DNA of 62,779 bases, counting the filler, from Candidatus Tectimicrobiota bacterium (GTDB lineage Bacteria; JACPSX01), in the NCBI GenBank assembly GCA_016193065.1. It is 7 parts of 7 records of this genome, joined end to end, with 100 filler letters (N's around TTAATTAATTAA, not from the genome) between each part and the next. Parts side by side here need not be neighbours in the genome. Positions count along the whole stretch, not along the records: positions 30,852 to 43,963 come from JACPSX010000087.1; 6 more parts are not named here. The stretch is one strand, 5' to 3'. Position 1 is the first letter of the stretch, and each line of letters starts with the position of its first letter. Below, in pieces: positions 23,608 through 43,963 of the stretch. The position numbers were made by a program, and so were the translations under genes. The notes beneath the pieces are model-generated. The model was not told the DNA's origin, made no database searches, and was given only the letters and a program-made list of their open reading frames with translations.

Positions 23608-23661
23608 GTTCTTCTCTCCTTCTTCCCTCGAACCGACTCCTTGCGAATCCGCATGTGATGA

Positions 23662-24663
23662 TCAGCCCAGGTTGAAAAACAAGGTCGACGGGTCCAGCTC
23701 TTTGTCGATCATCTTCAGCTCCACGGCGTACTTCATGAGAAGCTTGAGGCTCTCGCGGTCCTTGGGGCTGACCTCAAAGGCGAAGTACGCCGTCCCCACC
23801 CCCTGCTTCAAATGTTCCTTGCTGAGGCCCAATTTCTTGGCGGCAATGTCCAGGATCTGGTCCGTGTTCTGCAAACCGTACTCCCGCGACTTCTGCATGG
23901 CGGAGAGGACGCTCTTCACCGCCTTCGGATATTTCTCCACGATGCTCGTTTTGGCCACGATCAGAGTGGTAATCGTCGTAGTACCCGTCCAGGCTTCCCA
24001 GGTATCGGGGGTGACGAAGGATACCTTCAAAGAGGGCTCCCGCAAGGCCCGGTAGCTGGGTTCGCCGTACAGAACCGCCGCGTCGATCTCCCCCGACTGC
24101 AGTATCTGGTAGAGGATGGGAGGCGGTTTATCCACCCAGGTGATCCTGCTCAAATCCACTCCGTACCGATCCTTGAGAATCGCCTGCGTGTAGAGGGAGG
24201 AGGCCGAGCGCAGCAGGGGCAATCCGACCTTTTTCCCTTCCAGCTTTTTCGGATTGTCGACTCCGGCGGCGACTCGAACGTATAGAGCATTGGCCGGAGT
24301 GCCGGTACGCTCGGTTTGCTGCAGCCGCTGTTCGACGGCCACGGCGACCAGTGGGACTCCCCGGGCCCGGGCGGTGAAATAGGCGAGGAACGACATGGTC
24401 CCCAGGTCACGCTGGCCGGCCATCATGAGGCGCTCATTAGCGTCGATGGGGGCGTGCAGGACTTTGAAGTCCACCCGTTCCGGTTTGACGATGCCCTCAT
24501 AGAGGGCCGTGTAGCTGAGGACGGCGTTGGCCGCATAGCCGTAAGGATTGTCCCCGAATGTCAGAGCTGCTTTCTCTTGCCCCATGGCCGGCGGGATCCC
24601 GATCGCCAGCCAGGCGACGACGGCAGCCCATAAGAACTTCTTTGGTCGCATTCCGCAGATCAC
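23662..24663 (-). CDS. NitT/TauT substrate-binding protein, close tandem paralog of the preceding gene
   Basis: long identical stretches with 22594-23607 (PYGYAANAV, ERLMMAGQRDLG, GTPANALYVR, ITWVDKPPPILYQ); probable GTG start with GGAGGG RBS. Confidence 0.85.
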   Translation of the reverse strand: MICGMRPKKFLWAAVVAWLAIGIPPAMGQEKAALTFGDNPYGYAANAVLSYTALYEGIVKPERVDFKVLHAPIDANERLMMAGQRDLGTMSFLAYFTARARGVPLVAVAVEQRLQQTERTGTPANALYVRVAAGVDNPKKLEGKKVGLPLLRSASSLYTQAILKDRYGVDLSRITWVDKPPPILYQILQSGEIDAAVLYGEPSYRALREPSLKVSFVTPDTWEAWTGTTTITTLIVAKTSIVEKYPKAVKSVLSAMQKSREYGLQNTDQILDIAAKKLGLSKEHLKQGVGTAYFAFEVSPKDRESLKLLMKYAVELKMIDKELDPSTLFFNLG

Positions 24664-25048
24664 GTTTCGTCCCTCCCCCGCTGAAAAGGATGCCGGCCTA
24701 CCCTTTCCCCGCACAGCATGGTAGACACCTACTGATTGACTCTCGCTCAAACCCAGTTGGAAAACTTAATGTTTGATGTTTGTATCATATGAGTGGGGGA
24801 AAAATCAAGCAAAACGCCGGCACCGGAATTCGCATCAGGCGGAGCGCAGACTGTAGACAAACTGCCCCGCCGCCAGGAGCTGCAGCGAGGCATCGTGCCC
24901 CTCTTTTCTGACCTGAAGACCATTGGCCGAAAGTCCTTCCGGAAACTTCGTGGCTCTCTCCTCTCCCCAGGATCCTGGAGTTGAGCGTACCCCCGTTCCC
25001 GAATGCATCGAAGAGAACAGAAATCGATGCCGGATGCCGGGATTCGCG

Positions 25049-30851: not shown

Positions 30852-31271
30852 ATCCACTGTGACTTCCGTGGCCATGGAGTTCGAGATCAGACAGTACTGC
30901 TTGGCTTTTTGCAGAAGCCTCCCGACCGGCTCCTGATCCTCAGGACGGGAGAGCCAGACTTTGGGAGTCAGGTGAATCCGGGTCATCTTGAATTTGCCGT
31001 CAACGAATTCCAAAGTTCCCTCTGCCTGACTTTCAAACCCGATGAGGTTGACCTTGGCCTTTTCGGCCAGATAGAGGAAGGTCGTCATGAAGCAGCCGTT
31101 GGCTGAGGCGACGTAGAGGTCCTCGGGGCTCCAGAACCCCTCGGGTCCACCAAACTCCGGCGGGGTGGCCACCGGCAAGTCCGGCTTTCCTGCGCTGGAG
31201 AGAAGTCCCTTCTTGCCGTCCTGCCAGTAGATTGAGGATTGGTAAACGTGAGTTTTTGCCTGGATGCTCAT
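30852..31271 (-). CDS. OsmC-family protein, 3'-truncated
   Basis: PPEFGG..G.WSPEDL..AS..GCFM, AKQYCLISNS (two conserved Cys). Confidence 0.88.
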
Positions 31272-31407
31272 GTCATCCTCCTGTCGGCTGTCCCCCTCGC
31301 CTGTAGTGAGCCCGTTTCAACCAAAAGGGTGCGCGGGAAGCAATTTCCTTGACTGCAAGGCAAGGGGTTCAGTACAAGAGAGAGGGGGCGGAAAAACGGG
31401 GAACCGG

Positions 31408-33302
31408 ATGAGAGAATTTTTCAAGCCTCGCGCTGTGGCCGTCGTCGGCGCTTCCCGCGTGGAAGGCAAGGTGGGCCACAGCATCCTGCTGAATCTCCTG
31501 CGCGGCGGTTTTCCCGGAGCCATTTATCCCATCAACCCCGGTTCCCCGGACATCCTTGGAGTCAAGGCGTATCCGGACGTCTCTGCAATTCCCGCAGAAA
31601 TTGATCTGGCCGTATTGGTCATTCCCGCACCCCAAATCCTATCGGCTCTGGAAGCCTGCGTGGCCAAGGGGGCCCGGGGGGCCGTCGTCATATCGGCCGG
31701 CTTCAAGGAGATCGGTGGAGAAGGAGCCGCCCTGGAGCGTGAGCTGAAAAAGTGCGCCCGGGAGCTCGGGATTCGAGTCCTGGGACCCAACTGTCTTGGA
31801 GTCATCTCAACTCAGGGGCGCCTGAACGCGAGTTTTTCCCCCGGTATGCCTCCCGAAGGAGGCATCGGTTTTTTTTCTCAATCAGGAGCCCTGGGGACGG
31901 CGATCCTGGATTGGGCCGTGGGGCAGCGGATCGGGCTCTCCAGGTTCTTGAGCCTCGGCAACAAAATGGACCTCTCCGAAGTGGACGCGGTGCGGGCCAT
32001 GGCCGAGGATCCGGACACGAAGGTGATCCTGGGTTATGTGGAGGGAATTGAGCAGGGGCGGGAGTTCATGGCAGCGGCCCTGGCCGCCTCCCGTAAAAAA
32101 CCCCTGATCATGTATAAAGCAGGAACCACCTCGGCGGGAGCCAGAGCGGCCTCCTCCCATACGGGGGCCCTGGTGGGCTCCGACAAGGCGGTGGAGGCGG
32201 CCTTCCGGCAATCCGGGGTTTTTCGAGTATATTCTCTGGAGGACCTCTTTGATCTGGCTCAGGCCTTCAGCTCCCAACCACTCCCCTCGGGGCCCCGCCT
32301 TTTGATCTTGACGAACGCGGGAGGTCCGGGGATCATCGCGGCCGACGCGGTCGAGAAGGCCCGGGTGGAGCTTGCCCGGCTCTCCGACGAAACCGTTGCC
32401 CGCTTGCGTCAGTTTATGCCCCCGACGGCGGCCCTTTATAATCCGGTGGACGTCATCGGAGACGCCCGGGCGGATCGCTATCAGAAGGCGCTGGAAGTGC
32501 TGCTGCCGGACCCCGGGGTGGACGGGGTCCTGGTTCTGTTGACTCCCCAGGCAATGACCGAGATTGACAAGACCGCGCAACTTATCGGGCAGGCGTCTGC
32601 GGCCTCGGGAAAACCGATTCTGACTTCCTTTATGGGGGAGGCCAGCATGGGAGAGGCCCGCGAGATTCTACGGCGCTATCACGTACCGGACTACCCATAT
32701 CCCGAAGAAGCCGTCAAGGCGTTTGAGGCGCTGGCTGTTTACCGGAGCCGGCGGGATTCTCCGAGCGAGCATCCCGTCACGTTTCCCTGCCGCGGGCAGG
32801 AGGCCAGGGAAAGGATCCGGAAGGCTCGAAGGCAAGGCAGAATCAATCTTGGAGAGTCCGAAGCCCGCTTTGTCGCCGAGGCCTTCGGTTTCCGGTTTCC
32901 GCGCAGCGTGGTCGCTCAGACGGCGGATGAAGCTGTCAACGCCGCGGAAGAGACGGGGTATCCCGTGGTGCTCAAGATCGTCTCTCCGGAGATTCTTCAC
33001 AAGACCGACGTGGGTGGGGTGAAAGTCGGCCTGCGTGGCCCGAAAGAGGTCCGTGAAGGGTTCCTGGAAATCACCACCCGCGTGAGACGCCTGTTTCCCG
33101 ACCCTTGCTGCTCGGAGTGCGAGGAGAGAAGCCTGCGGATCTGCAGGCCCTCGTTGAAAGCCTGCAGCGTCTCTCCCAGCTTGCTATGGAACTTCCCGAG
33201 GTTTTGGAGATGGATATCAATCCACTCATTGTCCGGCCGGCCGGAGAAGGTGCCGTGGCCATTGACGTGCGGATGTCGCTCGTCCACGAGGAGGCCCCAT
33301 GA
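31408..33302 (+). pseudogene. acetate--CoA ligase (ADP-forming), fused alpha-beta, with a deletion/frameshift near 33100 (possibly an assembly error)
   Basis: AVVGAS, GPNCLG, SQSGA, SLGNK.D, AASSHTGAL (phospho-His), TNAGGPG, NPVD, KIVSP.I.HKTDVGGV; C-terminal L.GVRG..D..EMDINPL in another frame. Confidence 0.88.
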
Positions 33303-34360
33303 AATCGCTATACATTGGTTCCACGGGAGATTATTCGGGAAAGACCCTGGTCACGATGGGGTTGGCGATGGCTCTGCAGAAACAGGGTTTTAGCGTCGGG
33401 TATCTGAAGCCTCTGGGAAGGCTCCCCATTGTTGTGGAAGGGGAAGCCGTTGACGGCGATGCGGAATTTCTCAAGAAGATCCTGCATCTGACGGATCCTC
33501 TGAGCCTGATCTCTCCTGTTGTCCTCACTCACGAGCTCGTCGTGCAGCACTACAAAGGGGCTCTGCCGGATCTGCTCCCGAAGGTGGTGGCGGCCCATGC
33601 CCAGGTCTCTCGGGACAAGGACCTGGTCCTGATCGGAGGAGCCGGGAATTTCATGGGAGGGACCTTTCTGGATCTGGAGATTACCCGGGTCTGCGAGGCC
33701 CTTGCTTCCCAGGTTCTACTGGTTGATTCTTCCGATCCGCAGCGCGGCTATGACGCGCTCTTTGTGGCGCGGGAGATCCTGGGAGACCGCCTGATCGGCG
33801 TGATCCTCAATCGGGTTTCCTCCTTACTGCATAACATGGTGGAGGAGATGGCGATTCCCTTCCTGACTAAGTCGGGGTTCCGGATCCTGGGTGTTCTCCC
33901 TCACGACCCGCTTCTTGACGCCATCACCGTAGGCCAGCTCCAGGAGCTGTTGGATGGGAAGATCCTGTGCGCCGCGGATCGACTGGATGAGCTGGTTGCC
34001 AACTTCAGCGTCGGGGCCATGGATCTGGACAAGGCCATGAGCTACTTTCGCAAGCTCCCCAACAAGGCCGTCATCACCGGAGCAAACCGTCCCGACCTGC
34101 AGCTTGCCGCTCTGGAGACAGCCACCAAATGCCTCATCCTCACCGGGAATCAATCTCCCAACGAGATCATTATTTCACGGGCCCGGGAGCTGCGGGTTCC
34201 CATCATCGTGGTCCCCTACGATACCTTCACGACGGTGGATCGGGTCGAGCATTTCATGGGCCGGATCCGCATCCGGGAGCAGCAGAAAGTGGAGAAGGCC
34301 CGCCAGCTTCTGGAAGAGCGCCTGGACTACCGCGCTCTCCTGCAGGCGCTGCAACTGTAG
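33299..34360 (+). CDS. phosphotransacetylase-family protein (BioD-like N-domain plus DRTGG domain)
   Basis: YSGKT..GL, GYLKP, VGAM, ITGANRPDLQLAALE, CLILTG; ATGA-coupled to the CoA ligase. Confidence 0.85.
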   Translation: MKSLYIGSTGDYSGKTLVTMGLAMALQKQGFSVGYLKPLGRLPIVVEGEAVDGDAEFLKKILHLTDPLSLISPVVLTHELVVQHYKGALPDLLPKVVAAHAQVSRDKDLVLIGGAGNFMGGTFLDLEITRVCEALASQVLLVDSSDPQRGYDALFVAREILGDRLIGVILNRVSSLLHNMVEEMAIPFLTKSGFRILGVLPHDPLLDAITVGQLQELLDGKILCAADRLDELVANFSVGAMDLDKAMSYFRKLPNKAVITGANRPDLQLAALETATKCLILTGNQSPNEIIISRARELRVPIIVVPYDTFTTVDRVEHFMGRIRIREQQKVEKARQLLEERLDYRALLQALQL

Positions 34361-34401
34361 CTGAGAGCCTAGAGCTAAGTGCTGAGGGCTGAGTGCCTAT
34401 T

Positions 34402-34427
34402 GTCATTCCCGCGCAGGCGGGAATGAC
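34402..34427. repeat. REP-like palindrome
   Basis: GTCATTCCCGC-GCAG-GCGGGAATGAC. Confidence 0.7.
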
Positions 34428-34564
34428 GAAAGCGCAGCAATTGTGACACCATATCCAAACGTCCCGAGTAATAATTTTCGATGCCAATGCCGTTGACGGG
34501 GGATGAAGACTGCGGTACAAGGGAGATTGTTCGGGCCGGGCCTGTTGCGGAGAAGGAGGGGGAA

Positions 34565-35158
34565 TTGGTCGATTCTTCGGATCAACAGATCATTGAGCGG
34601 GTCAATCAAGGCGATCCGGCCGCCTTTGAAGAACTCCTGGAACGATATGAAGAGAAGATCTTCCACTTCGGCATGCGCATGTGCGGCCAGGTGGAGGACG
34701 CCCGCGATTTGCTGCAGGAGACCTTCCTGAACGCCTTCCGGTACCTGAAGGGTTTTCGGGGGGAGGCCCAGTTCAAGAACTGGCTTTACAAGATCGCCAG
34801 CAGCGTGTGCATCAAGATGCGGCGCAAGGGGAAGTTCGAGCCGGACTTTGAAATTTCCCTTGACCAGCTTGTTCCCACGGAAGATGGAGAAGTCCCTCAG
34901 GAAATTCCCGATTGGGCTTTAGAGCCCCTGGAGAACGTGCTGAGCAAGGAGGTCCGCCGGCGCCTTTCGGAGGCTCTGGCCCTCCTTCCCAAGGAGTACC
35001 GCATTGTCCTGGTCCTGAGGGACATGGAAGGCTTTTCCACGGAAGAGACAGCGGAGACCCTGGGCATTAGCGAGGCGGCCGTCAAGTCGCGCTTGCACAG
35101 GGCGCGGCTGTTTGTGCGGCACAAGCTCCACGAGTATTTTCAAGGAAGGAAACCGTGA
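34565..35158 (+). CDS. ECF sigma-70 factor
   Basis: GD..AFEEL, DLLQETF, FKNWLYKIA, LP..YR.V.VLRDMEG.S..E.A..LG.S..AVKSRLHRAR; probable TTG start with AGGAGG RBS. Confidence 0.92.
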   Translation: MVDSSDQQIIERVNQGDPAAFEELLERYEEKIFHFGMRMCGQVEDARDLLQETFLNAFRYLKGFRGEAQFKNWLYKIASSVCIKMRRKGKFEPDFEISLDQLVPTEDGEVPQEIPDWALEPLENVLSKEVRRRLSEALALLPKEYRIVLVLRDMEGFSTEETAETLGISEAAVKSRLHRARLFVRHKLHEYFQGRKP

Positions 35159-35391
35159 TGGACGAGGGCTGCCGAAAACTCTTTGAGCGCATGTCGGAGT
35201 ACCTGGACGGCGAGCTTGATCTCAAGGAGCTGGCCGATATCGAGTCCCACCTGCATCTCTGTCATCACTGCGAGGCGTGCCTGGCGGCTCTGCGCCGCAC
35301 CATCGAGGTTTGCCGTTCGCACAGCGTCCCCTCCATGCCCACGGAAGTCCGCCGGGAACTGCACGAGCTGATTCGCAAAAACCTGTCTTGA
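35155..35391 (+). CDS. soluble zinc-finger (zf-HC2/ZAS) anti-sigma factor
   Basis: C...MSEYLDGEL...HLHLCHHC (HxxxCxxC); no TM helix; overlaps the sigma stop. Confidence 0.88.
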   Translation: MMDEGCRKLFERMSEYLDGELDLKELADIESHLHLCHHCEACLAALRRTIEVCRSHSVPSMPTEVRRELHELIRKNLS

Positions 35392-35548
35392 GCAAAGCCT
35401 GCCCTGAGCAGAGCCGAAGGGTCGAAGGACCTGCGCTGAGCTCCCTCTTGCTCCTCTTGTGAAAAATAATGCAACTGACCTATTGCACCACAGAACCCCT
35501 GGGCCAAGGTTAAAGGTGTAGCTGGAAGTATTTGATTTACTACAAGTT

Positions 35549-35562
35549 CTAGCGATCGCTCG
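35549..35562. promoter_or_regulatory. putative TetR operator
   Basis: near-perfect 14-bp palindrome CTAGCGATCGCTCG about 50 nt upstream of tetR. Confidence 0.45.
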
Positions 35563-35614
35563 GAAGTCCTGGGGGCGGGCGACTTCCGGTTCTCAGTCAC
35601 AATTGGCGGTAGTC

Positions 35615-36259
35615 ATGGAATACCAGGGTCGGTTGCAGGAAGTCCTGCGTCAGGCCGCAGCTCTCTTTTCCGAGAAAGGGTACCCGTCCGCTTCGATCCG
35701 GGACCTGTCGCGGGTTTCCGGCCGGAGCATGGCGGGCCTTTACTACTATTTCGCGGGGAAGGAGGAACTGCTCTACCGGATCTGCGCTCAAAGCCTCCAG
35801 GAGATTCTCGAGGAGCTCGACCGATCTCTACCCCAAATCGCCCCCCCTCAGGAAAAGCTCCGCTACCTCGTCGCGGTTCACCTGGACTATTTCCTCAACC
35901 ACCGGGACGAGATGCGGGTCCTCTCTCAGGATTCGGAATTTCTCCAGGGAGAGCATAAGGAAAAGCTGGCTGAGCAGCAAAAGGGCTATTACCTGCTCTG
36001 TCAACAGGTGTTGCGAGAGGTTTGGGAAGAAGCCGGAAGCGGCCAGGAGATTTCCCGAGAGGAGCTGCGGCTCTCGACCCTGGCCCTTTTCGGGATGATC
36101 AACTGGGTTTACAAATGGTACGAGCCGGGCAAGGACCTCTCCTCCAGAGATCTTGCGGACTGGATGACGCGGTTCTTTCTGGAAGGGTACCTGGGGAGCC
36201 CAGCAACTTCTCCGTTTCCGGAACAGAGTCTCCGGGGGATCGACAGTCGGATGGAATGA
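35615..36259 (+). CDS. TetR-family regulator (KstR2/PaaR-like C-terminus)
   Basis: AAALFSEKGY..ASIRDL...S.AGLYYYF.GKEELL; GMINWVYKWYEP. Confidence 0.92.
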   Translation: MEYQGRLQEVLRQAAALFSEKGYPSASIRDLSRVSGRSMAGLYYYFAGKEELLYRICAQSLQEILEELDRSLPQIAPPQEKLRYLVAVHLDYFLNHRDEMRVLSQDSEFLQGEHKEKLAEQQKGYYLLCQQVLREVWEEAGSGQEISREELRLSTLALFGMINWVYKWYEPGKDLSSRDLADWMTRFFLEGYLGSPATSPFPEQSLRGIDSRME

Positions 36260-36266
36260 ATCGGTC

Positions 36267-36290
36267 GGGCGCAATGAATTGCGCCCCTAC
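36267..36290 (-). repeat. GTAG-type REP palindrome
   Basis: GTAGGGGCGCAATTCATTGCGCCC on the minus strand. Confidence 0.7.
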
Positions 36291-36358
36291 TATAGATTCA
36301 CGTCCACAAAGCGACAGGTCTTGTTACGGGTTCCCGGCGGGGCAGAGGTCAACGGGCC

Positions 36359-37783
36359 ATGCAATCCAGCCAGTGTCCCGGGTTTCAAGGCTACAGACTC
36401 CATTTCGACGCGCCCAGCGAGTCCTTGCGCCGGCGCATTGACGACCATCCCTGTTACAGCGAGGAAGCACATTGCTTCTTTGCCCGAATTCATCTGGCCG
36501 TGGCGCCTCGCTGCAATGTTTTTTGCAACTACTGCAACCGCAAGTTTGACTGTCCCAACGAGAGCAGGCCTGGAGTTGCCAGCACGGTCTTAAACCCGAA
36601 AGAGGCCGTGAGGCAAGTTGAACTTGTCCTGGAGAGGGTTCCCTGGACTACGGTCGTGGGAATTGCCGGACCCGGGGATCCGCTGGCCAACCCCCAAGAA
36701 TCCCTACAGACCTTCCGGCTGGTGCACCGTGAATTTCCCGATCTGATGCTCTGCCTTTCGACGAATGGGCTCGCGCTAACGGACCACCTGGATGAACTCG
36801 TCGAATTGGGGGTCAGCCATGTCACTCTCACCATCAACATGGTTGACCCGGAGGTCGGCCGGAGCATTTACTCCTGGGTGCGCTATGGAGGCATTGTGTA
36901 TCGGGGGTGGGAGGGGGCTGAACTGCTTCGCATCCAGCAGATGCGGGCCCTCGAAGAGCTCCGTCGCCGGGATATTCTTACCAAGGTGAACATTGTCCTC
37001 ATTCCGGAGGTCAATGACTTCCATCTCCCGGAAGTCGTCAAGGAAGTTCAGAGAAGGGGAGCTTTTCTCGTCAACGTGATCCCGCTCCTTCTGGTTCCCG
37101 GGAGCAAGTTTGAGAAGCAAGAGGTCCGGGAGCCCAGCCTGGAGGAGCGGAGAGTCATTCAGGACCTTTGTGAACGGAAGCTGGGCGTGCAAGTCATGCG
37201 TCACTGCCGCCTGTGCCGGGCTGATGCCGCCGGATTTTTGGGACAACAAGAAGAGACAAGTCCACGACCTGCCCGGACTCCGCAAGATCGGGGAGCCTTC
37301 CTGGCAGAAGCGAGACGCCGGCGTGACCGGGTGCGCCGGGTCCGGGAAGAAGTTCTCGAAACTCTCGTCGTCCTGGATGGCCGATCCCTGCGGGTGGCCG
37401 TTGCCTCTCGGGGAGGGAGGCTTGTAAACGAACATTTCGGGAGGACCCGGGAGTTTTTAATCTTTGAGGTGACCTCCGGGGCCATCCGGCTCCTGGAGAT
37501 CCGGCCCGTGGCAGGATATTGCACTGGACCCCAGAGCTGCGGAGACGAACCACAAAGTCTTAGTTCCTTGATTTCTTTGCTGAGCGACTGCCACATGGTG
37601 CTGTGCAGTCGGATCGGGCTGGATCCGGTCAAGGCTTTGAGGCAGGCAGGCATACGTCCCGTAGAAGCTTACGGTTTCATTGACCGGGCCATCGCCGGCG
37701 CCGTCAGCGCCCACGTAGGGGTACCCGCCGGAAACTACGTCACTGCAGGGAAGGAGGTTGATGAGCCATCGGGGAATCTCTAG
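36359..37783 (+). CDS. nifB: nitrogenase cofactor biosynthesis radical SAM protein NifB with C-terminal NifX-like domain
   Basis: HPCYS..AH..FARIHLAVAP.CNVFCNYCNRKFDCPNESRPG, GIAGPGDPLAN, LCLSTNGL, HCRLCRADA, VAVAS.GG.LVNEHFG. Confidence 0.95.
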   Translation: MQSSQCPGFQGYRLHFDAPSESLRRRIDDHPCYSEEAHCFFARIHLAVAPRCNVFCNYCNRKFDCPNESRPGVASTVLNPKEAVRQVELVLERVPWTTVVGIAGPGDPLANPQESLQTFRLVHREFPDLMLCLSTNGLALTDHLDELVELGVSHVTLTINMVDPEVGRSIYSWVRYGGIVYRGWEGAELLRIQQMRALEELRRRDILTKVNIVLIPEVNDFHLPEVVKEVQRRGAFLVNVIPLLLVPGSKFEKQEVREPSLEERRVIQDLCERKLGVQVMRHCRLCRADAAGFLGQQEETSPRPARTPQDRGAFLAEARRRRDRVRRVREEVLETLVVLDGRSLRVAVASRGGRLVNEHFGRTREFLIFEVTSGAIRLLEIRPVAGYCTGPQSCGDEPQSLSSLISLLSDCHMVLCSRIGLDPVKALRQAGIRPVEAYGFIDRAIAGAVSAHVGVPAGNYVTAGKEVDEPSGNL

Positions 37784-37844
37784 CCAGTTAGACCGCGAAG
37801 CGAAGGTTGGGGGGCCGTAAAACAGAGAAGGGAGGTGGAGAAAG

Positions 37845-38699
37845 ATGCCGCCGGCAATGAGACAAATCTCGATCTACGGAAAGGGAGGGGTAGGAAAATC
37901 CACGGTTGCCAGCAACACCTCGGTCGCCCTGGCGGAAATGGGCCGCCGGGTCATGCAGATGGGATGTTCTCCGAAAGCCGACTCGACCTATCTGTTGTTG
38001 GGTCACATGTGTCACCCCACAGTCCTCGATCAGGTCCGGGCCAAAGGCTATCGCAAACCCGAGTACATCGATGAGTGCCTGCAGATCGGGCACAAGGGGA
38101 TCGTGTGCGCCGAGGCGGGGGGGCCCGAACCTGCTCTGGGCTGCGCGGGGCGCGGGGTTTTGTTGGTCCTGGAACTGCTGCGCAAGTATCGTCTTCCGGA
38201 AAAGCACGAGGTGGATTTCCTGGTCTTCGATGTCATTGCGGACGTGGTCTGCGGCGGGTTTGCCCAGCCCATCCGCAGGGGGTATGCCAAGGAAACCTAT
38301 ATTGTCACCAGCGGGGAGCTCATGGCTCTGTACGCGGCCAACAACATCTGTAATGCGGTGAAGACCATGAACGAGCTCAAGGGGGCCCAGGTTTTCGTGG
38401 GTGGGCTCATCAACAACATGCGCGGGGTTCCCGGAGAGTTGGAGTTGGTGAGGGAGTTCGGGGAGATCATCGGAGTTCCGGTGGTTGCCAACATCCCCCA
38501 TTCCGATCTGATGCAGCGCGCGGAAACCCAGAAAAAGACTCTGGTGGAGAATTTCCCGGATTCCGCAGAGGCCCAGGAATTCCGCAGCTTTGCCCAACAG
38601 ATCCTGGAACCCCGGGGGATTATTCCCCAGCCGCTGGACCCCAAGGACAGTATTTCGGTAATTCGAGACCTCCTACGGAAGTACCAGGTCTTCGATTGA
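37845..38699 (+). CDS. NifH-like nitrogenase-family Fe protein 1
   Basis: YGKGGVGKST, GCSPKADST, EAGGPEP..GCAGRGV, FDVIADVVCGGFAQPIR, SGELMALYAANNI. Confidence 0.93.
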   Translation: MPPAMRQISIYGKGGVGKSTVASNTSVALAEMGRRVMQMGCSPKADSTYLLLGHMCHPTVLDQVRAKGYRKPEYIDECLQIGHKGIVCAEAGGPEPALGCAGRGVLLVLELLRKYRLPEKHEVDFLVFDVIADVVCGGFAQPIRRGYAKETYIVTSGELMALYAANNICNAVKTMNELKGAQVFVGGLINNMRGVPGELELVREFGEIIGVPVVANIPHSDLMQRAETQKKTLVENFPDSAEAQEFRSFAQQILEPRGIIPQPLDPKDSISVIRDLLRKYQVFD

Positions 38700-38713
38700 G
38701 GGAGGTGAACGCC

Positions 38714-39613
38714 ATGATTGAACGATTTGAAGTCCCCAAGGAAGTGCCGCGCAAGATCGCTATTTACGGCAAGGCCGGCATTGGCAAGTCCATTACCTCC
38801 TCTCACATCAGCGCCGCCCTCTCGGAGATGGGGGAGAAGGTGGGTCTCATGCAAGTGGGCTGCGATCCCAAGCGGGATTCCATCGCCCTGCTGTGCGGGG
38901 GGATCATGCCTACAGTCCTGGAAAAGCTGCGCATGATCGAGAGCGACAGCCTGGGCGACGAAGATACGGGACCTGTGGAGCTGACCGACGTGAAACTCGA
39001 CGAGGTGATCTTCTCGGGTTACAACGGCATCGTGTGCTGCGAGGCCGGGGGGCCGAGGCCGGGGATGGGCTGCGCCGGGCGCGGGGTCCTGGTAGCCATC
39101 AACATCCTGGACGAGTTCAAGGTCTACGAGCGCAACAACGTGGGGTTTGCGATCTTTGACGTGCTGGGGGACGTGGTTTGCGGCGGGTTCGCCCAGCCCA
39201 TGCGGGCCGGGCAGGCTCACGAAATCTACATCGTCACTTGCGGCGAGATTCTGGCCCTCTACATCAGCAACGAGATCATGAGAGCGGTGAACCGGATCCG
39301 CAGCGAGGGGGTCAACGTGGGGCTGGCGGGGCTCATTGACAATCAGCGCAACGTCCCCTTCGAGAGGGAAATCGTGGAGGAGTTTGCCCGCCGCACCGGG
39401 GTTCCCGTCATTCTGCACGTGCCCAGGTCCCCCAAGGTCCAGGAGGCCGAGATCATGTGCAAGACCGTGATCGAGGCCTTTCCGGAGTCGGATCAGGCGT
39501 TGGTCTACCGGTCTCTGGCCAGGAAAGTGTATGAGAACCAGTACATTTACGCGCCCGCACCCCTAAACGGGCTCGATGAGGTGGTTGATGTGGTCCGCAC
39601 CTACATCCATTAG
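38714..39613 (+). CDS. NifH-like nitrogenase-family Fe protein 2
   Basis: YGKAGIGKSI, GCDPKRDS, EAGGPRPG.GCAGRGV, FDVLGDVVCGGFAQPMR; GGAGG RBS at 38701. Confidence 0.93.
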   Translation: MIERFEVPKEVPRKIAIYGKAGIGKSITSSHISAALSEMGEKVGLMQVGCDPKRDSIALLCGGIMPTVLEKLRMIESDSLGDEDTGPVELTDVKLDEVIFSGYNGIVCCEAGGPRPGMGCAGRGVLVAINILDEFKVYERNNVGFAIFDVLGDVVCGGFAQPMRAGQAHEIYIVTCGEILALYISNEIMRAVNRIRSEGVNVGLAGLIDNQRNVPFEREIVEEFARRTGVPVILHVPRSPKVQEAEIMCKTVIEAFPESDQALVYRSLARKVYENQYIYAPAPLNGLDEVVDVVRTYIH

Positions 39614-39660
39614 CCCTGAGAAATCGTTCTTCTCTGATCGATCAGGGGAAAGGAGGAGAG

Positions 39661-41301
39661 ATGAACTGGCCTGTCTGTGACCAAGTCATGCCATGGGATA
39701 AGGTGGATCGCACCCGGGAGCCCTGGGAGATTGCCCGGGACTACCTGGAGATGCGTGCCAAGAAACAGTTTGAGATCGTCACCTTCAGGGATTTGCTGGA
39801 GAAGACGGAAGACACGGCAGCCTCGGACTGGTGGGAAAAAATCGTCCCCGGATACGGCAGCGGGCTCTGGTGCCCCGCTTATTATTCGATCCAGACCTGG
39901 GCCGGGTTGCCCAACTCCGTCGTGGTCTTCCACGGACCGACCCACTGCGTTTCCGCGGCCCGCTTTTTCCAGATCTCCTACGGCGGCGGCGGGGGCGGAA
40001 GCTACTACTGGGGCGGTCCGTTCTGTTTTGTCCCCAGCACGGAGATGAACGAGCGGGACGCGATCCTTGGGGCTCCCGAGAAGCTCAAGAAAGCGATCCT
40101 GGAGATCGATGCAGTGGCCAAGCCGGAGATCATCATCGTGGCGCCGGCCTGCGCCCCCAGCATGATCGGAGAGCCCATGGAGGAGGTCATCGAAGACGTG
40201 CGGGGGCAGATTCAGTCCGAGATCATCTTCGTGGATGCGCCGGGGTTTAAGTGCATTGACGAAGGAGACATGATCCGGTTGGTCACCAGCAAGTACTGCA
40301 CCGACTTAATGGAAGAACCCAAGACCAAGGACAAAGGGGCGGTCAATGCGGTGGGGGATTGGCGCACAAGCGCCTGGGAGGAGCGCTACGGCGTCAAGTG
40401 CAATTTCCCAACGGCCTACGATGAGCTGAACAGGATCCTCAAGAGGATGGGCCTCAAGCTGAAGACGGTTCTGCCGCAGGCCCCGCTGGCGGACATCCGG
40501 CGGGCTCCCGAGGCGGAGTTCAACGTCTGCACCTGCCCCATGTTTGCCTACCCGATCTGCGAGGAGATGAAAGCCAAGTTCGGTGTCCCGTACAGCAACC
40601 ACGTGTACCCCCTGGGGATAGAAGCAACCCGAAACTACATCATGGCCATCGCGGACTTCTTCGGCAAACAAAACGAGGCGGAAGCTCTCCTACGGGAGGA
40701 GTTTGGGAAGCTTCAGCCCTTGTGGGACGAGGCCAGGAGAAAGATCGCCGGCAAGGTGGCCCTCATGGATTCTTCCATCGCCATGACTTCCGTGAACCGG
40801 CAGATGGGTTATGCACGCATGCTCATCGAGTTGGGGATCGAGGACGTGATCTTCTTCAACATCGCCCCCTCGGAAGTTCTGGGCCGCAGGGAAGGGGTCG
40901 AATACTACCTGAGCCAGACGATCAATGGAGTTCCCTACAACCCCAAGTTCCTCTGGTGGCCGGCTCCCCACGCCATCAAGTTAAGTCCTGTGGAGGTCAT
41001 GGAATTCCTGGGCTTGAAGCCGCAAGATGTCCTCTACCTGTACGGAGATCTGGGGTGGTATGCCAAGGCTCCCGACATCGATCCCGCCAACACGGCCCAG
41101 GTGCAATCGGGGATCCACTGGCGCAGGCGCCGCAACGTGTGCTCCCGGTCCATCTTCTTTAGCGGCATCCGGGGGCTCTTGCGGGACATCATCAATGCGG
41201 TGAATACTTCTAGCCGCGGCAGGAACTTCACCCTCTATGGCCGGGTCATCGGGGAGTGGGCCATTGGGGATGGGGCTGCCGGAGCTGCGGAAAGGGGGTG
41301 A
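39661..41301 (+). CDS. nitrogenase component-1 family, alpha (NifD-like) subunit, highly divergent
   Basis: WCPAY..(25)..HGPTHC, STEMNERDAILG..EKL..AI, PACAPSMIG, APGF, AEFNVCTCP, GVPY..PLGIEAT. Confidence 0.88.
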   Translation: MNWPVCDQVMPWDKVDRTREPWEIARDYLEMRAKKQFEIVTFRDLLEKTEDTAASDWWEKIVPGYGSGLWCPAYYSIQTWAGLPNSVVVFHGPTHCVSAARFFQISYGGGGGGSYYWGGPFCFVPSTEMNERDAILGAPEKLKKAILEIDAVAKPEIIIVAPACAPSMIGEPMEEVIEDVRGQIQSEIIFVDAPGFKCIDEGDMIRLVTSKYCTDLMEEPKTKDKGAVNAVGDWRTSAWEERYGVKCNFPTAYDELNRILKRMGLKLKTVLPQAPLADIRRAPEAEFNVCTCPMFAYPICEEMKAKFGVPYSNHVYPLGIEATRNYIMAIADFFGKQNEAEALLREEFGKLQPLWDEARRKIAGKVALMDSSIAMTSVNRQMGYARMLIELGIEDVIFFNIAPSEVLGRREGVEYYLSQTINGVPYNPKFLWWPAPHAIKLSPVEVMEFLGLKPQDVLYLYGDLGWYAKAPDIDPANTAQVQSGIHWRRRRNVCSRSIFFSGIRGLLRDIINAVNTSSRGRNFTLYGRVIGEWAIGDGAAGAAERG

Positions 41302-41307
41302 GGAGAA

Positions 41308-42684
41308 ATGCCGGTCATCGAGAAAAAAATGCGCACGGCGAACGACGCGTTCCAGCCCAGCGCCATGATGGGAGCCGTCCTGGCCCTGTCGGGAATCGAG
41401 GGCGTGGAAATCGCCTTTCACGGGCCTTCGGGGTGTTACACCATTGCTGGGCACTATCGCACCGATCAGGCCCCCATGGGAGTCTATTCCTCCATGCGTC
41501 CCAGTGGAGTAACGGAAGACAATCTGGTCATGGGGACCAGCATGGAGAAGCTGAGCCAGCTCATCAAGTTCATGAAGATGACCTTCAAGAAGGACCGCTC
41601 GCGGCTGTTCGCGATCGTCAACACGGACTCTACGGCGATCACGGGTGATGACATCTTGGGCGCGGCGCGGCGCTTCGAGAAGGAGATGGGGTTTCCCGCC
41701 ATTGCGGTAGATGCCCCTGGATTCAAGGGGTGGGACGTGGTGGGATATGACCTTTCCTACCGGGCCTTGCTCGGGAAGTTTGCCCCCGGGGATTCCTTGG
41801 CGAAGATTCCCGACAGCGTCAACATCATCGCCCCCTATATGCTGCACTCCCAGAACTGGATCTTCGACTTCGAGGAGATCAGGAGCCTCTTGGCCAGACT
41901 GGGAATCCGGATCAACTGCGTTCTCACTCGAAATACCCGCATCGAGGACATCAAAAACTTCAGCGCGGCCCAGTGGAACCTGCACCTGAGCGCCGAGGAT
42001 TTTCCAAGCTTCCAGAAGGAGGCCGACCGGCTGGCGGTGCCCTCTTTCGGCGCGGATCTCCCCTTGCCTTACGGGATCGCCAACACGGAGGCCTGGTTCC
42101 TGGGGGTGGCCCGGCAGTTCGGCAAAGAGGAGAAAGCGCGAGAAATCCTGACCGAGGACAGCAAGCGGGTCAAGTCCATCCTGGGGTTCAACTACACTTA
42201 CACCTGGCTGGCGAACCTTCTGATGCAGAAGAGGGTGGCGGTTATCGGCCGCGAGAAGTTTGCCGCCAGCATCGCCCGCGCGCTGTTCTACGACTTCGAT
42301 GCCTATCCCGACGTGGTAATCCTCCAGGGTTCCGGCCGCTCTGCCTTTGAACGCTCCAAGGCCCTGCTGGCGGACATTGAAAAGGACGGGTATTCCGTCA
42401 AGATCATGGAGAACCCGTCCTATATCGAAGTGGCCCGCCTGATCCAGGAGAGCGAGGTTGACTTCGTCATCGGCTCCCGGATCGAGAAGCCGCTCATCGA
42501 GGGGATGCGGTTCCCTCACCTGAGCCTGGGGAGCGCAGGCTACTTCCAGAGCTTCCGGTTTGTCCCCTACCCCTATGTGGGCTACAACGGGGTCCTCTAC
42601 CTTCTCCAGGAGTTGGGGCTGGTGATGCACGACATGATGACCGAGAAGGAGATGTGGCGAGGCCTGCGCTTCAAGAACATTTGA
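41308..42684 (+). CDS. nitrogenase component-1 family, beta (NifK-like) subunit, highly divergent
   Basis: GAVLAL.GI...FHGPSGC, TEDNLVMG, TAITGDDI, APGFKG, VNII, LPYGIANT..W, DFVIGS..E, PYVGYNG. Confidence 0.88.
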   Translation: MPVIEKKMRTANDAFQPSAMMGAVLALSGIEGVEIAFHGPSGCYTIAGHYRTDQAPMGVYSSMRPSGVTEDNLVMGTSMEKLSQLIKFMKMTFKKDRSRLFAIVNTDSTAITGDDILGAARRFEKEMGFPAIAVDAPGFKGWDVVGYDLSYRALLGKFAPGDSLAKIPDSVNIIAPYMLHSQNWIFDFEEIRSLLARLGIRINCVLTRNTRIEDIKNFSAAQWNLHLSAEDFPSFQKEADRLAVPSFGADLPLPYGIANTEAWFLGVARQFGKEEKAREILTEDSKRVKSILGFNYTYTWLANLLMQKRVAVIGREKFAASIARALFYDFDAYPDVVILQGSGRSAFERSKALLADIEKDGYSVKIMENPSYIEVARLIQESEVDFVIGSRIEKPLIEGMRFPHLSLGSAGYFQSFRFVPYPYVGYNGVLYLLQELGLVMHDMMTEKEMWRGLRFKNI

Positions 42685-42711
42685 ATCCGAACGGCCCCGT
42701 GGGCCCGCGCC

Positions 42712-42765
42712 AGACCCTGTCCGGGAGACCCGATTCGGGACATCCCGGGCAGGGTCTTGCTTTTT
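42712..42765 (+). terminator. rho-independent terminator closing the nitrogenase-like operon
   Basis: AGACCCTGTCCGGGA...TCCCGGGCAGGGTCT stem followed by TGCTTTTT. Confidence 0.7.
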
Positions 42766-42871
42766 ACGGGATGTTCTCCTCAGGATTCCAGGGCGCTGGA
42801 ACATATGCAGATTGATTTTCGGACGGCATCTGTGTAGTATAAGAAAAGCCTTGATGAGGCGGAGAGCGACG

Positions 42872-43144
42872 ATGATTTGCATTGATCACACGGTTCAGAT
42901 TTGGCAAGAGGGGGACACCTATGTCGCCCACGCTCATCCTCTGGATGTCATGAGCTGTGGCGAATCCCCTGAGGAGGCCCGTCGGAATTTGGAAGAAGCG
43001 GTCCGCCTTTTCTTGAAGGTGGCTGAAGAGCAGGGGACCTTAGAGGAGGTCCTTCGTGAGGCTGGTTATATCCTCAAGGACCACCACTGGAGCGCTCCCG
43101 AAATCATTTCCTCAGAGCGCGTTTCCCTCTCGCTTTCGGCGTAA
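42872..43144 (+). CDS. hicB: HicB-family antitoxin
   Basis: WQEGDTYVA....LDVMSCGESPEEARRNLEEAVRLFL. Confidence 0.85.
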   Translation: MICIDHTVQIWQEGDTYVAHAHPLDVMSCGESPEEARRNLEEAVRLFLKVAEEQGTLEEVLREAGYILKDHHWSAPEIISSERVSLSLSA

Positions 43145-43374
43145 TGCCGAAGATCACCCCAACCCACTGGTCTGTTCAGGAGAAGATCTTCCAGGCGGAT
43201 GGATTTATTTTTGTTCGCCAGGAGGGGAGCCACCGCGCCTATATAAAGCCTGGAATCCCCAGGCCTGTCATTATTCCCGTGTATCGGGAGGTTCCTGTCT
43301 CCATCATTCGAAATAATATGAAAACTGCCGGGATGACCCGCGAGCGCTATTTTAGCCTGCTGGCCCAGGTCTAG
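43144..43374 (+). CDS. hicA: HicA-family toxin
   Basis: GF.FVRQEGSH..Y.KPG..RPVIIP; TAATG overlap with hicB. Confidence 0.88.
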   Translation: MPKITPTHWSVQEKIFQADGFIFVRQEGSHRAYIKPGIPRPVIIPVYREVPVSIIRNNMKTAGMTRERYFSLLAQV

Positions 43375-43425
43375 TTCGAAGGACCTCGGGCACAAATTTT
43401 GGATGCTCCCCGCCTACCCTGCGGA

Positions 43426-43455
43426 TTGACCGGATCACCTGAGAGGGGATACAAT
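43426..43455 (+). promoter_or_regulatory. putative sigma70 promoter
   Basis: TTGACC-N18-TACAAT upstream of the VKOR gene. Confidence 0.5.
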
Positions 43456-43508
43456 ACCGTGGAGTTTTCTGGGTGGGGAACCGACGAGCGTAAGTTAGGA
43501 TTGGCCTA

Positions 43509-43963
43509 GTGAACGAGAACCGCTGGCCGTTGCAGGGGATTCTGGTGTTGGCGCTGGCCGGGGTGGGAGTCAGTTCCTATCTCTCCTACCTGGACGTGCA
43601 GATCTCCAGAGCTCCCAACAAGGCCTTTTGCAGCATCTCCCAGCTCTTCTCCTGTGACGTGGTCATTCGCAGCCCTTACGCCCATTTCTTCGGCATCCCC
43701 GTGGCCTATCTGGGGGTGGCCGGGTTTCTGCTGTTTTTGATCCTGGCGGTATGGGCCCTCGCTTGCCGGGATCGTTCAACGACACGCTGGCCAATTTTGG
43801 GATTGGTGAGCCTGTCCTGGATCGCCCTGGTATTTGAATGTTATTTAACCTCGGTGGAAGCTTTTGTCCTCAAAACGTTTTGTCCGTACTGCCTGACGGT
43901 TTTCGCATTCATTATTGCTATTTTCCTGTTATCCTTGCGGGCGACCTCCCGGGTTCCGAGCAC
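43509..43963 (+). CDS. vitamin K epoxide reductase (VKOR) family disulfide-bond protein, 3'-truncated
   Basis: CSIS...SCD.V..SPYA..FGIPVA.LG, CPYC. Confidence 0.9.

Follow-up and report, generated by a model that had tools for sequence, protein, structure and literature searches.

The stretch of DNA analysed here (the window: 62,779 nucleotides, composed of seven joined parts) derives from Candidatus Tectimicrobiota bacterium, assembly GCA_016193065.1, with positions 30,852 to 43,963 originating from record JACPSX010000087.1. Within this part, five genes on the plus strand, namely nifB, H1, H2, D, and K, span positions 36359-42684, with a hairpin and a U5 run downstream. They encode a NifB-type maturase, two NifH-like ATPases, and an alpha- and a beta-type subunit of a nitrogenase-like component 1. 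The features of the locus, including the regulator gene situated just 5' of nifB, are the following.

36359..37783, plus strand: nifB, 474 aa, radical-SAM cluster maturase with a C-terminal NifX-like domain
37845..38699, plus strand: H1, 284 aa, NifH-like ATPase (PF00142, 290.5 bits)
38714..39613, plus strand: H2, NifH-like ATPase (PF00142, 281.2 bits; open reading frame from TTG 38696)
39661..41301, plus strand: D, 546 aa, alpha-type component-1 subunit (PF00148, 170.5 bits)
41308..42684, plus strand: K, 458 aa, beta-type component-1 subunit (PF00148, 194.7 bits)
42712..42765, plus strand: intrinsic-terminator-like hairpin with U5 (15-bp stem 42712-42757, UUUUU 42761-42765)
35603..36259, plus strand: TetR-family regulator (PF17932 TetR_C_24, 84.1 bits; PF00440 TetR_N, 41.8 bits; weak YsiA-like match)

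The five-gene operon, first noted in a preliminary description of this DNA, was confirmed: the open reading frames, the domain scores, and the folding of the terminator region all agree with five co-oriented genes closed by a terminator. The region 42685-42790 folded at -55.5 kcal/mol (z -3.81), and 1 of 200 shuffled sequences folded equally well. A simple consensus scan did not flag a terminator after K; the hairpin was recovered by folding, and it ends with its U5 run at 42765, the same end coordinate as in the preliminary description. The first gene had been described as a full NifB with a NifX-like domain, which also held: PF04055 (Radical_SAM) covers residues 48-229, PF02579 (Nitro_FeMo-Co/NifX-like) covers residues 353-446, and the score of 505.7 bits on TIGR01290, with a cut-off of 343.65, places the protein within NifB. 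The H2 protein is 45% identical to H1 over 290 aa and contains an insertion of approximately 15 residues in comparison with H1. Its true start is likely the ATG at 38714 rather than the TTG at 38696, because the Shine-Dalgarno sequence GGGAGGTG precedes it and because the orthologues and a natural H2-D fusion protein start at the same residue.

When the window was searched by tblastn with NifD, NifK, NifE, NifN, NifH, NifB, NifX, NifV, NifI1, NifI2, ModA, and AnfO queries, taken from three annotated nif plasmids and one nitrogen-fixation-like (NFL) plasmid, matches were located at 36422-42702 only, plus one weak radical-SAM match at 9653-10057. In agreement with the earlier claim that the contig lacks nifE, nifN, nifV, nifI, and Mo-uptake genes, the NifV, PII/NifI, Mo-uptake (ModA), and NifE/N queries gave no match in the window outside the operon, NifA, bch, and cfb queries not being among those used. 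Four DNA sequencing runs of one groundwater study contain the stretch, consistent with a groundwater origin, and no RNA sequencing runs containing it were listed.

The operon is real and rare. A word-indexed search of 5.8 billion proteins returned 10 close relatives of D, at 49-70% identity, and a HMMER search of 1.84 billion cluster representatives gave 685 D matches at E <= 1e-3, just 24 of which were at E <= 1e-30. The preliminary description had proposed a search for the same five-gene synteny in other genomes; a scan of one genome per species (185,579 species), with 8 close sequences as the query, revealed 5 operon loci. These came from metagenome-assembled genomes (MAGs) labelled Eubacteriales (three loci) and Cloacimonadota, and from a complete Candidatus Eiseniibacteriota chromosome. 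The order nifB-H1-H2-D-K was kept in all five, with NifB directly 5' of H1, the NifB of locus L003 being cut by the contig end. H1 was 67-71% identical to the H1 orthologues and 44-47% identical to the H2 orthologues, and H2 showed the reverse. The NifB proteins of L001, L002, and L004 were of a short form (273-276 aa; the L001 copy scored 328.3 bits on the NifB core), and that of L005 comprised 392 aa (347.0 bits). In the 5 orthologue genomes, one of which is the complete 2.69-Mb chromosome, full-length NifH matches were restricted to H1 and H2. PF00148 matches over the cut-off corresponded to the operon D and K only, so these relatives have no nifDK or nifEN elsewhere; a NifEN supplied from another part of the genome, a possibility raised in the preliminary description, was thus found in none of them.

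Placement and cluster-ligand positions of D and K

According to the available text of a Chem Rev 2026 review (PMC13474568), Groups I-III, MSL, and VII are nitrogenases, and the NFL systems comprise Groups IV-A (Nfa), IV-B (CfbCD), IV-C (methylthio-alkane reductase, MAR), IV-D and IV-E (unknown), IV-F (isethionate reductase, ISR), V (dark-operative protochlorophyllide oxidoreductase, DPOR, and chlorophyllide oxidoreductase, COR), and VI. In the available part of PMC13753814 (mBio 2026), nflBHDK clusters without NifEN are described in Groups IV-A, D, E, and F, with MAR activity in IV-C alone. The bare NifEN-less nflBHDK layout is therefore not new, being present in those four groups. The earlier statement that the layout and residue changes fit no known group is partly supported, by the D and K proteins, which lie apart from the Nif, NifEN, and Mar-related clades; the gene arrangement is not unusual in itself.

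A careful tree (IQ-TREE, posterior mean site frequency model, 58 rows, 466 columns) recovered the D family and the K family as separate clades, each with a support of 100/100. The D family joined, at 100/98, a small clade of methanogen proteins and a Ruminiclostridium protein, forming a group of 18 rows in all; in their source records, the methanogen proteins carry the name 'nitrogenase associated protein E' or VnfE. The NifD+NifE clade (100/100), anchored by three annotated plasmid nif clusters, excluded D, and the K family was placed apart from the NifK+NifN clade (100/100) and from the Chlorohelix NflK. Likewise, the D family was situated outside a Mar-related clade of 10 rows (100/99), whose anchors are the Chlorohelix NflD and protein P0106; P0106 scored 238.5 bits against MarD (9fmg_A), compared with 53.7 bits for the D protein of the window. 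The tree was built without labelled Nfa (IV-A), IV-D/E, ISR (IV-F), CfbD, BchNB/YZ, or Group VI sequences, R. rubrum MarD itself being absent as well, and a quick tree of 110 rows agreed with it. The distinctness of the D/K family from Nif/Vnf/Anf, NifEN, and the Mar-related clade, as previously claimed, is supported by these placements and by the scores given below. Nesting of D and K inside MarDK, the outcome that the preliminary description had set against its own claim, was not observed, as the D family lies outside the Mar-related clade and K apart from the Chlorohelix NflK.

When considering the curated NCBIfam models, H1, H2, D, and K were below every nitrogenase, NifEN, DPOR, COR, and CfbCD cut-off. 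The nifH model gave 303.7 bits for H1 and 300.5 for H2 (cut-off 394.35), nifD gave 66.5 bits (653.55), nifK gave 52.5 (427.3), and VnfD, AnfD, VnfK, and AnfK were all far below their cut-offs, so that none of the proteins scored as part of a Mo, V, or Fe nitrogenase. The best model for both D and K was nifE, with 95.1 and 89 bits, respectively, against a cut-off of 505.1, and nifN on K reached 25.4 bits against 326.8; by neither score nor clade do these subunits belong to NifEN. Other scores were 195 bits for BchL (345.15), 75.2 and 79.6 for BchB (490.35), 291.6 and 295.8 for CfbC (402), and 39.6 and 25.1 for CfbD (268.4), with BchN and BchX/Y/Z also far below. H1 and H2 scored about equally on nifH and CfbC and far below that on BchL or BchX. 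None of 20 exemplar relatives reached any equivalog cut-off in the NCBIfam scan. The names of 30 cluster-member proteins included no Elusimicrobia, Endomicrobium, or Rhodobacter and one methanogen 'nitrogenase associated protein E', and the ESM Atlas returned generic Oxidored_nitro clusters only.

The D-family profile matched C. pasteurianum NifD (158 bits), MarD (157.6), and the fused NifEN (156.2) almost equally, with the alignment ending near position 365 of 501. The AlphaFold model of D (predicted local distance difference test, pLDDT, 84.4; predicted template modelling score 0.87) gave tied structural matches to holo-NifEN (Z 25.3), DPOR (25.1), MarD (25.0), and NifD (about 23-24). These structural alignments reach about residue 540, so the C-terminal third corresponds to a normal domain III with a divergent sequence.

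The cluster ligands were located in computed alignment columns, with the Nif residues numbered as what we take to be NifD C62, C88, C154, and C275, and NifK C70, C95, and C153. In the profile-to-PDB alignment, D Cys71, Cys96, Cys164, and Cys292 align to NifD C62, C88, C154, and C275, respectively, and the first three are invariant in 42/42 family rows. In K, Cys43 occupies the C95 position, Ser18 the C70 position, and a conserved Asp107 the C153 position; K is thus without two of its three P-cluster Cys. Altogether, the P-cluster positions are kept in 3/3 cases in D and 1/3 in K, giving four of the six Cys that characterise nitrogenase and MAR. Three Cys from D and one from K, together with the Cys at the C275 position, correspond to the pattern of the NifE/NifN reference rows, a likeness of positions and not of cluster identity. 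Because the ligand count is four Cys, the cluster bridging D and K would be of the [4Fe-4S] type, as in NifEN or DPOR, and not an [8Fe-7S] P-cluster.

The position of Cys292 varies across the wider family. It is a Cys in the clade of the window (7/7 rows) and in most subgroups. In the subgroup g29, it is Thr, Met, or Ser in 21/21 rows, and flanks of up to 8 kb contained no NifB. A NifB gene is present in the locus in the window, in 5/5 orthologous loci, and in 2/4 loci of the subgroup g44.

Additional features of these subunits were observed. A Cys-x-Cys motif occurs at residues 290-292 of D (window 40624-40626), and residues 101-118 (window 39961-40014) form a Gly-rich loop, with a run of six Gly followed by aromatics, which is specific to the close clade and constitutes the lowest-confidence part of the model (pLDDT 34-43). 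In K, Cys204 (window 41917-41919) is invariant in the 23-row K alignment and is also a Cys in g44, matching no known Nif ligand position. At L051:4898-8518, a divergent family member was noted whose K protein retains all three P-cluster Cys and whose H gene product is extended by about 150 aa at its N-terminus; this member may reflect the six-Cys state of the ancestor.

H1 and H2 as candidate halves of one Fe protein

A metagenome scan with the wider D family yielded 40 family loci (L012-L051), many of which consist of D and K followed by one gene of 584-638 aa holding two NifH domains (hereafter fused HH). Two separate H genes were found in L042 and L048, and a single, upstream H gene in L035 and L038-L040, which belong to one subgroup. 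In a careful tree of 35 H domains, one clade (96/92) brought together the H1 of the window, the orthologous H1 proteins, the N halves of the fused proteins, and the H encoded first in L042 and L048. A second clade (97/94) contained the H2 of the window, the orthologous H2 proteins, the C halves, and the H encoded second in these two loci. The two clades grouped together at 97/92 and were sister to the single-H group. This structure indicates that the duplication is older than the spread of the family and that gene order corresponds to domain order.

Both cluster Cys positions are kept in 30/30 H1- and H2-type rows, and both proteins retain the Walker A motif. The switch I region reads GCSPK, with Ser in place of the NifH Asp, in 15/15 H1-type rows and GCDPK in 15/15 H2-type rows. 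In this class of ATPases, the first Lys of the deviant Walker A acts on the nucleotide of the partner; this trans-acting signature Lys is kept in 15/15 H1-type rows and is Thr or Asn in 7/7 fused C halves. A larger sample, the best 120 of 2640 matches to a fused protein at E <= 1e-3, contained 89 proteins with two NifH domains. Among these, the N half had Lys and Ser in 80/89, and the C half had Asp in 89/89 with the Lys lost in 59/89.

Taken with the phylogeny, these patterns indicate that H1 and H2 are best read as two halves of one heterodimeric Fe protein and not as two Fe proteins. The pair would be obligate, because the H1 site is without its own switch residue (and, in the fused forms, also without the Lys of its partner) and the H2 site keeps both. 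The 'two Fe proteins' of the preliminary description accordingly stand as two NifH-family genes, and their separate old clades and the N-to-C fusions in sister lineages make the two halves of a heterodimer the better reading. In the literature searched, a limited collection, no natural heterodimeric or tandem-fused NifH was found, and one engineered plant fusion was relevant.

Proteins of this fused HH type, about 580-640 aa long, occur rather frequently in MAGs of Deltaproteobacteria, Binatia, Myxococcales, Chloroflexota, Dehalococcoidia, and Thermodesulfobacteriota. Examples are found in L012-L031 and L044-L047 (e.g., L018:11775-13532 and L044:10510-12300) and among proteins P0262-P0354. Their public names include 'hypothetical protein', 'AAA family ATPase', 'ArsA-related P-loop ATPase', and 'nitrogenase iron protein NifH'. 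Four of the fused-type proteins among the best 120 are longer than 700 aa, and three of these add a component-1 domain (PF00148), namely P0349 (948 aa), P0350 (1010 aa), and P0356 (986 aa). A different fusion, P0002 (853 aa), joins H2 to D through a Pro/Val/Glu-rich linker and is 72% identical to H2; it hints that H2 sits near the D N-terminus. As a single sequence on one 12.8-kb contig, P0002 may be an assembly or gene-call artefact.

Gene neighbourhoods and the candidate substrate

In the clade of the window, no conserved accessory genes accompany the five operon genes. The TetR gene just 5' of nifB is a possible regulator of the operon, and it is not kept in the orthologous loci, where an HTH-GNAT protein occupies the same position in L001, L002, and L004.

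The sister lineages show more structured neighbourhoods. In g29 (L012-L032, e.g., L018:6196-13532), a 3-hydroxyacyl-CoA dehydrogenase gene lies between K and the fused HH gene with 4-nt overlaps, and the flanks contain the gene of a divergent UbiD-family enzyme in 13 loci, an aldehyde dehydrogenase gene in 11 loci, and a gene for a PaaK-like coenzyme A (CoA) ligase. This subgroup may represent a simpler-cofactor version of the system. The g44 subgroup displays a tight array composed of D, K, the fused HH, an acyl-CoA dehydrogenase, an enoyl-CoA hydratase (ECH), a second, BadI/MenB-like ECH (313 and 339 bits), NifB, and an Oah/MenB-like ECH. Of the fused-HH operons, the L044 type, with NifB and BadI/Oah-like genes, offers the most clear-cut pathway context. 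A Zn-dehydrogenase gene is located 3' of K in L035 and in the close orthologue L005, where it is followed by an acyl-CoA dehydrogenase gene; its best model is the 6-hydroxycyclohex-1-ene-1-carbonyl-CoA dehydrogenase, with 279.2 and 272.5 bits against a cut-off of 338.65. Since the sister operons embed such benzoyl-CoA-pathway-like genes, the leading candidate substrate, at a modest probability, would be a hard-to-reduce acyl- or aryl-CoA thioester with a ring or a conjugated C=C bond.

The class I benzoyl-CoA reductase (BcrABCD) offers a functional analogy only, its protein families (an ASKHA-type ATPase and the BcrBC core) being unrelated to those described here. In that enzyme, BcrA and BcrD are two different ATP-hydrolysing subunits that bridge one [4Fe-4S] cluster, and the dienoyl-CoA hydratase, the Had dehydrogenase, and the Oah hydrolase act next in the pathway; paralogues of these three flank the sister operons. 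In the same limited literature collection, neither a nitrogenase-like enzyme tied to aryl- or acyl-CoA metabolism nor a description of this D/K family was found. No nitrogenase terms occurred in the benzene-cluster paper PMC13101534, and no NflD terms in the methanogen NifB preprint.

Other genes of the window were also recorded. On the minus strand at 22594-24750, two adjacent genes encode NMT1/SsuA-like (MqnA-fold) binding proteins, with an ABC permease nearby at 19095-20867, and a related binding protein is encoded in the g29 locus L018 (5190-6302). The segment 27580-30729, also on the minus strand, contains a 509-aa radical-SAM protein, whose best model is that of the KedN5-family B12-dependent C-methyltransferases (113.6 bits, cut-off 700), adjoining a DegT-type aminotransferase fragment and a C-methyltransferase domain. 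Several of these open reading frames look truncated, and the set looks like a sugar- or natural-product-modifying one, unrelated to the operon.

Proposed mechanism and rival explanations

We read the operon, with a probability of roughly 60%, as a self-contained ATP-driven nitrogenase-like reductase of a rare unnamed clade that would work through the following steps. NifB, as suggested by its family membership and its linkage in the operon, would build an Fe-S-carbide cofactor of the L-cluster type. This cofactor would pass straight to D with no NifEN in between, Cys292 at the NifD Cys275 position being its site of attachment. D and K would share a bridging cluster held by three D Cys and one K Cys, with the conserved K Asp nearby, the cluster type following from this ligand set. 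H1 and H2 would form one heterodimeric Fe protein in which each half contributes two Cys to a bridging [4Fe-4S] cluster, as the phylogeny, the fusions, and the motif decay suggest. In this heterodimer, the nucleotide site of H1 appears degenerate and that of H2 intact, so probably one ATP is hydrolysed per cycle. The substrate would be organic and not N2, an acyl- or aryl-CoA thioester being the candidate drawn from the sister operons. In outline, this agrees with the main idea of the preliminary description, in which the enzyme would load a NifB-made [8Fe-9S-C]-type cluster and reduce a non-N2 substrate.

Several observations weigh against this reading. In the clade of the window, the signature Lys is still present in H2 and switch I is largely preserved in H1, whose changes are the Ser in switch I and an Ala replacing the switch-II Gly; the two sites are therefore less asymmetric here than in the fused proteins. 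The Cys292 position is retained in three subgroups in which no NifB was found in flanks of 4-8 kb on each side (loci of 13-17 kb). His486, in a conserved H-x-R-R-R-R stretch, lies 5 residues off the NifD His442 column in the global profile alignment, in which this stretch is of low confidence. The lack of NifEN and NifDK rests on the 5 orthologue genomes and not on the genome of the window organism itself. Regarding the substrate, the neighbours in the window are an NDP-forming acyl-CoA synthetase gene 3 kb upstream and the TetR gene, CoA hydratase and dehydrogenase genes were absent from a wider Pfam scan of the window neighbourhood, and 4/5 close orthologue loci show no CoA enzymes. All the benzoyl-CoA-pathway-like neighbours of the sister operons score below curated cut-offs, as paralogues of the pathway enzymes and not those enzymes, and such genes are common in these phyla anyway. 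Moreover, the sister lineages share only about 25-35% identity with D and their substrates may differ, and other subgroups have transporters or housekeeping genes as neighbours.

A more specific version, which we consider doubtful, is that a NifB-dependent enzyme of the L-cluster type reduces an acyl-CoA ring, aromatic or alicyclic, and that a heterodimeric NifH-type Fe protein (single-chain in relatives), the first of its kind to be known, drives the reaction with one catalytic and one degenerate ATP site, at about 1 ATP per electron instead of two. It would represent a third, nitrogenase-derived solution to the 'biological Birch' reduction.

A reductase of sulfur compounds that cleaves C-S bonds, like methylthio-alkane or isethionate reductase, is an unlikely alternative. 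MAR (MarBHDK, Group IV-C; R. rubrum, PDB 9FMG and 9D9U) resembles the operon in combining a NifB-type maturase, an Fe protein, and a D/K core without NifEN, the minimal nflBHDK layout described for it in the available part of PMC13753814, and also in the kept cofactor-position Cys of D, the overall fold (MarD Z 25.0), and a linked NifB above the TIGR01290 cut-off. Such a function is proposed for most of Group IV. According to the same part of that source, nearly all Group IV-A/D/E/F systems are found beside sulfur genes; the two NMT1/SsuA-like binding proteins located 12-14 kb upstream in the window, and the one in L018, point in the same direction. However, the available texts of PMC13753814 and PMC13474568 assign to MAR a full six-Cys set with a P-like mar1 cluster, whereas D and K here have 4/6, with K keeping 1/3 and so lacking two of the six. 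MAR also uses a single MarH homodimer instead of two paralogues, and both D and K of the window are outside the Mar-related clade. No sulfur-assimilation genes adjoin the window operon, and no cysteine or methionine synthase gene adjoins it or its 5 orthologous loci, unlike the Chlorohelix Mar-like locus, which contains one nifH, a short NifB, and an O-acetylhomoserine sulfhydrylase. It is quite unlikely that the operon serves cofactor building, either as a NifEN-like scaffold for another enzyme or as a Group VI-like reductase in tetrapyrrole-type cofactor synthesis. NifEN (PDB 3PDI, 9I0G, and 9ONK) shares the 3+1 bridging Cys, the Cys275-position Cys, the presumed holding of a NifB-made L-cluster, and a NifH-type partner, and holo-NifEN was the best, although tied, structural match (Z 25.3); nifE was the best NCBIfam model of D and K, and the sister clade holds the methanogen 'nitrogenase associated protein E'/VnfE proteins. 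Against a scaffold, the nifE score is below the cut-off, D lies outside the NifD+NifE clade, the 5 orthologue genomes contain no NifDK or other component-1-type client enzyme, and the position of the conserved Asp in K is an Ala in the Rhizobium NifN reference row. DPOR (BchL/BchNB) and COR, as would the present system, bridge their subunits through a [4Fe-4S]-type cluster held by fewer than six Cys, and the B/K-type subunit provides a carboxylate; the fold match is tied as well (Z 25.1). Within the superfamily, the ATP-driven reduction of a C=C bond of a conjugated ring by DPOR comes closest, chemically, to what is proposed for the substrate class here. DPOR differs in using no NifB, in having no cofactor site at the Cys275 position, and in the BchL homodimer, and the window proteins score far below the cut-offs of the Bch models. 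Group VI NFL systems (Elusimicrobia, Gracilibacteria, and Myxococcales; available text of Meheust et al. 2020, bioRxiv 10.1101/765248) share an occurrence in groundwater and sediment MAGs, divergent D/K proteins, and at most four of six Cys. As described in the available text of PMC13474568, Group VI has at most four of the six Cys and is without NifB and without the Cys275 position, so that the operon, which has both, is set apart by the published description. In addition, the H proteins of the window reach far higher scores on the NifH and CfbC models than on those of BchL or BchX, the family context consists of CoA-ester genes, compared with many radical-SAM genes reported for Group VI in the available text, small-molecule-type regulators precede the operon, and no tetrapyrrole genes were seen in the neighbourhood scans, in which no query aimed at bch or cfb was made. 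The family may nevertheless touch Group VI, since g29, with no Cys275-position Cys and no NifB nearby, fits the Group VI description as far as the available text gives it; there may be overlap between g29 and the systems from Myxococcales that had been assigned to Group VI.

That the operon encodes a true minimal N2-fixing nitrogenase without NifEN, similar to Nfa or to the NifEN-less Group III, is very improbable. In its favour, the operon encodes NifB and Fe proteins, D has the Cys at the Cys275 position, the available text of PMC13474568 mentions nitrogenases without NifEN as well as the N2-fixing Nfa, and N2 reduction by L-cluster-bound assembly proteins is reported in that of PMC13245594. 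All nitrogenase equivalogs, however, are far below cut-off on these proteins (as with nifD and nifK above), only 4/6 P-cluster Cys are kept, D and K lie outside the NifD/NifK clades, and the window gave no NifV, PII/NifI, or Mo-uptake match, the regulators being of the TetR or HTH-GNAT type. Equally concerned with the Fe protein genes is the proposal, which we regard as distinctly improbable, that H1 and H2 are two homodimeric Fe proteins with separate jobs, for instance catalysis and cluster maturation. NifH is known to serve both catalysis and the maturation of the cofactor and the P-cluster, H1 and H2 each keep both cluster Cys and the Walker A motif, and one family subgroup has a single H gene beside D and K. 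The N and C halves of the single-chain NifH-NifH proteins, however, are orthologous to H1 and H2, respectively, and both H genes are kept in 5/5 orthologous loci. The decay is complementary as well, with Ser for Asp in the H1 type only and loss of the trans-acting Lys in the H2 type only, which makes sense only if the two halves pair.

To our knowledge, every NifH-type Fe protein studied (NifH, VnfH, AnfH, BchL, BchX, CfbC, and MarH) is a homodimer that uses two ATP per electron, and we know of no nitrogenase-like enzyme that acts on CoA thioesters of the benzoyl-CoA-pathway type. The NifB-linked, NifEN-free layout was known already, and what is most notable here is the two-part Fe protein together with the NifEN-like ligand set. 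Under our reading as a self-contained reductase, the operon would be another NifB client outside nitrogen fixation, in which a NifEN-like cluster set is apparently used for catalysis. The neighbourhoods of the sister lineages provide a testable substrate class, namely benzoyl-CoA-pathway-type CoA thioesters, and H1- and H2-like sequences recovered in groundwater nifH surveys are no markers of nitrogen fixation. If true, a natural heterodimer with one decayed site would offer a direct handle on the ATP need of electron gating, an old question in nitrogenase energetics that is also relevant to the engineering of cheaper nitrogenases.

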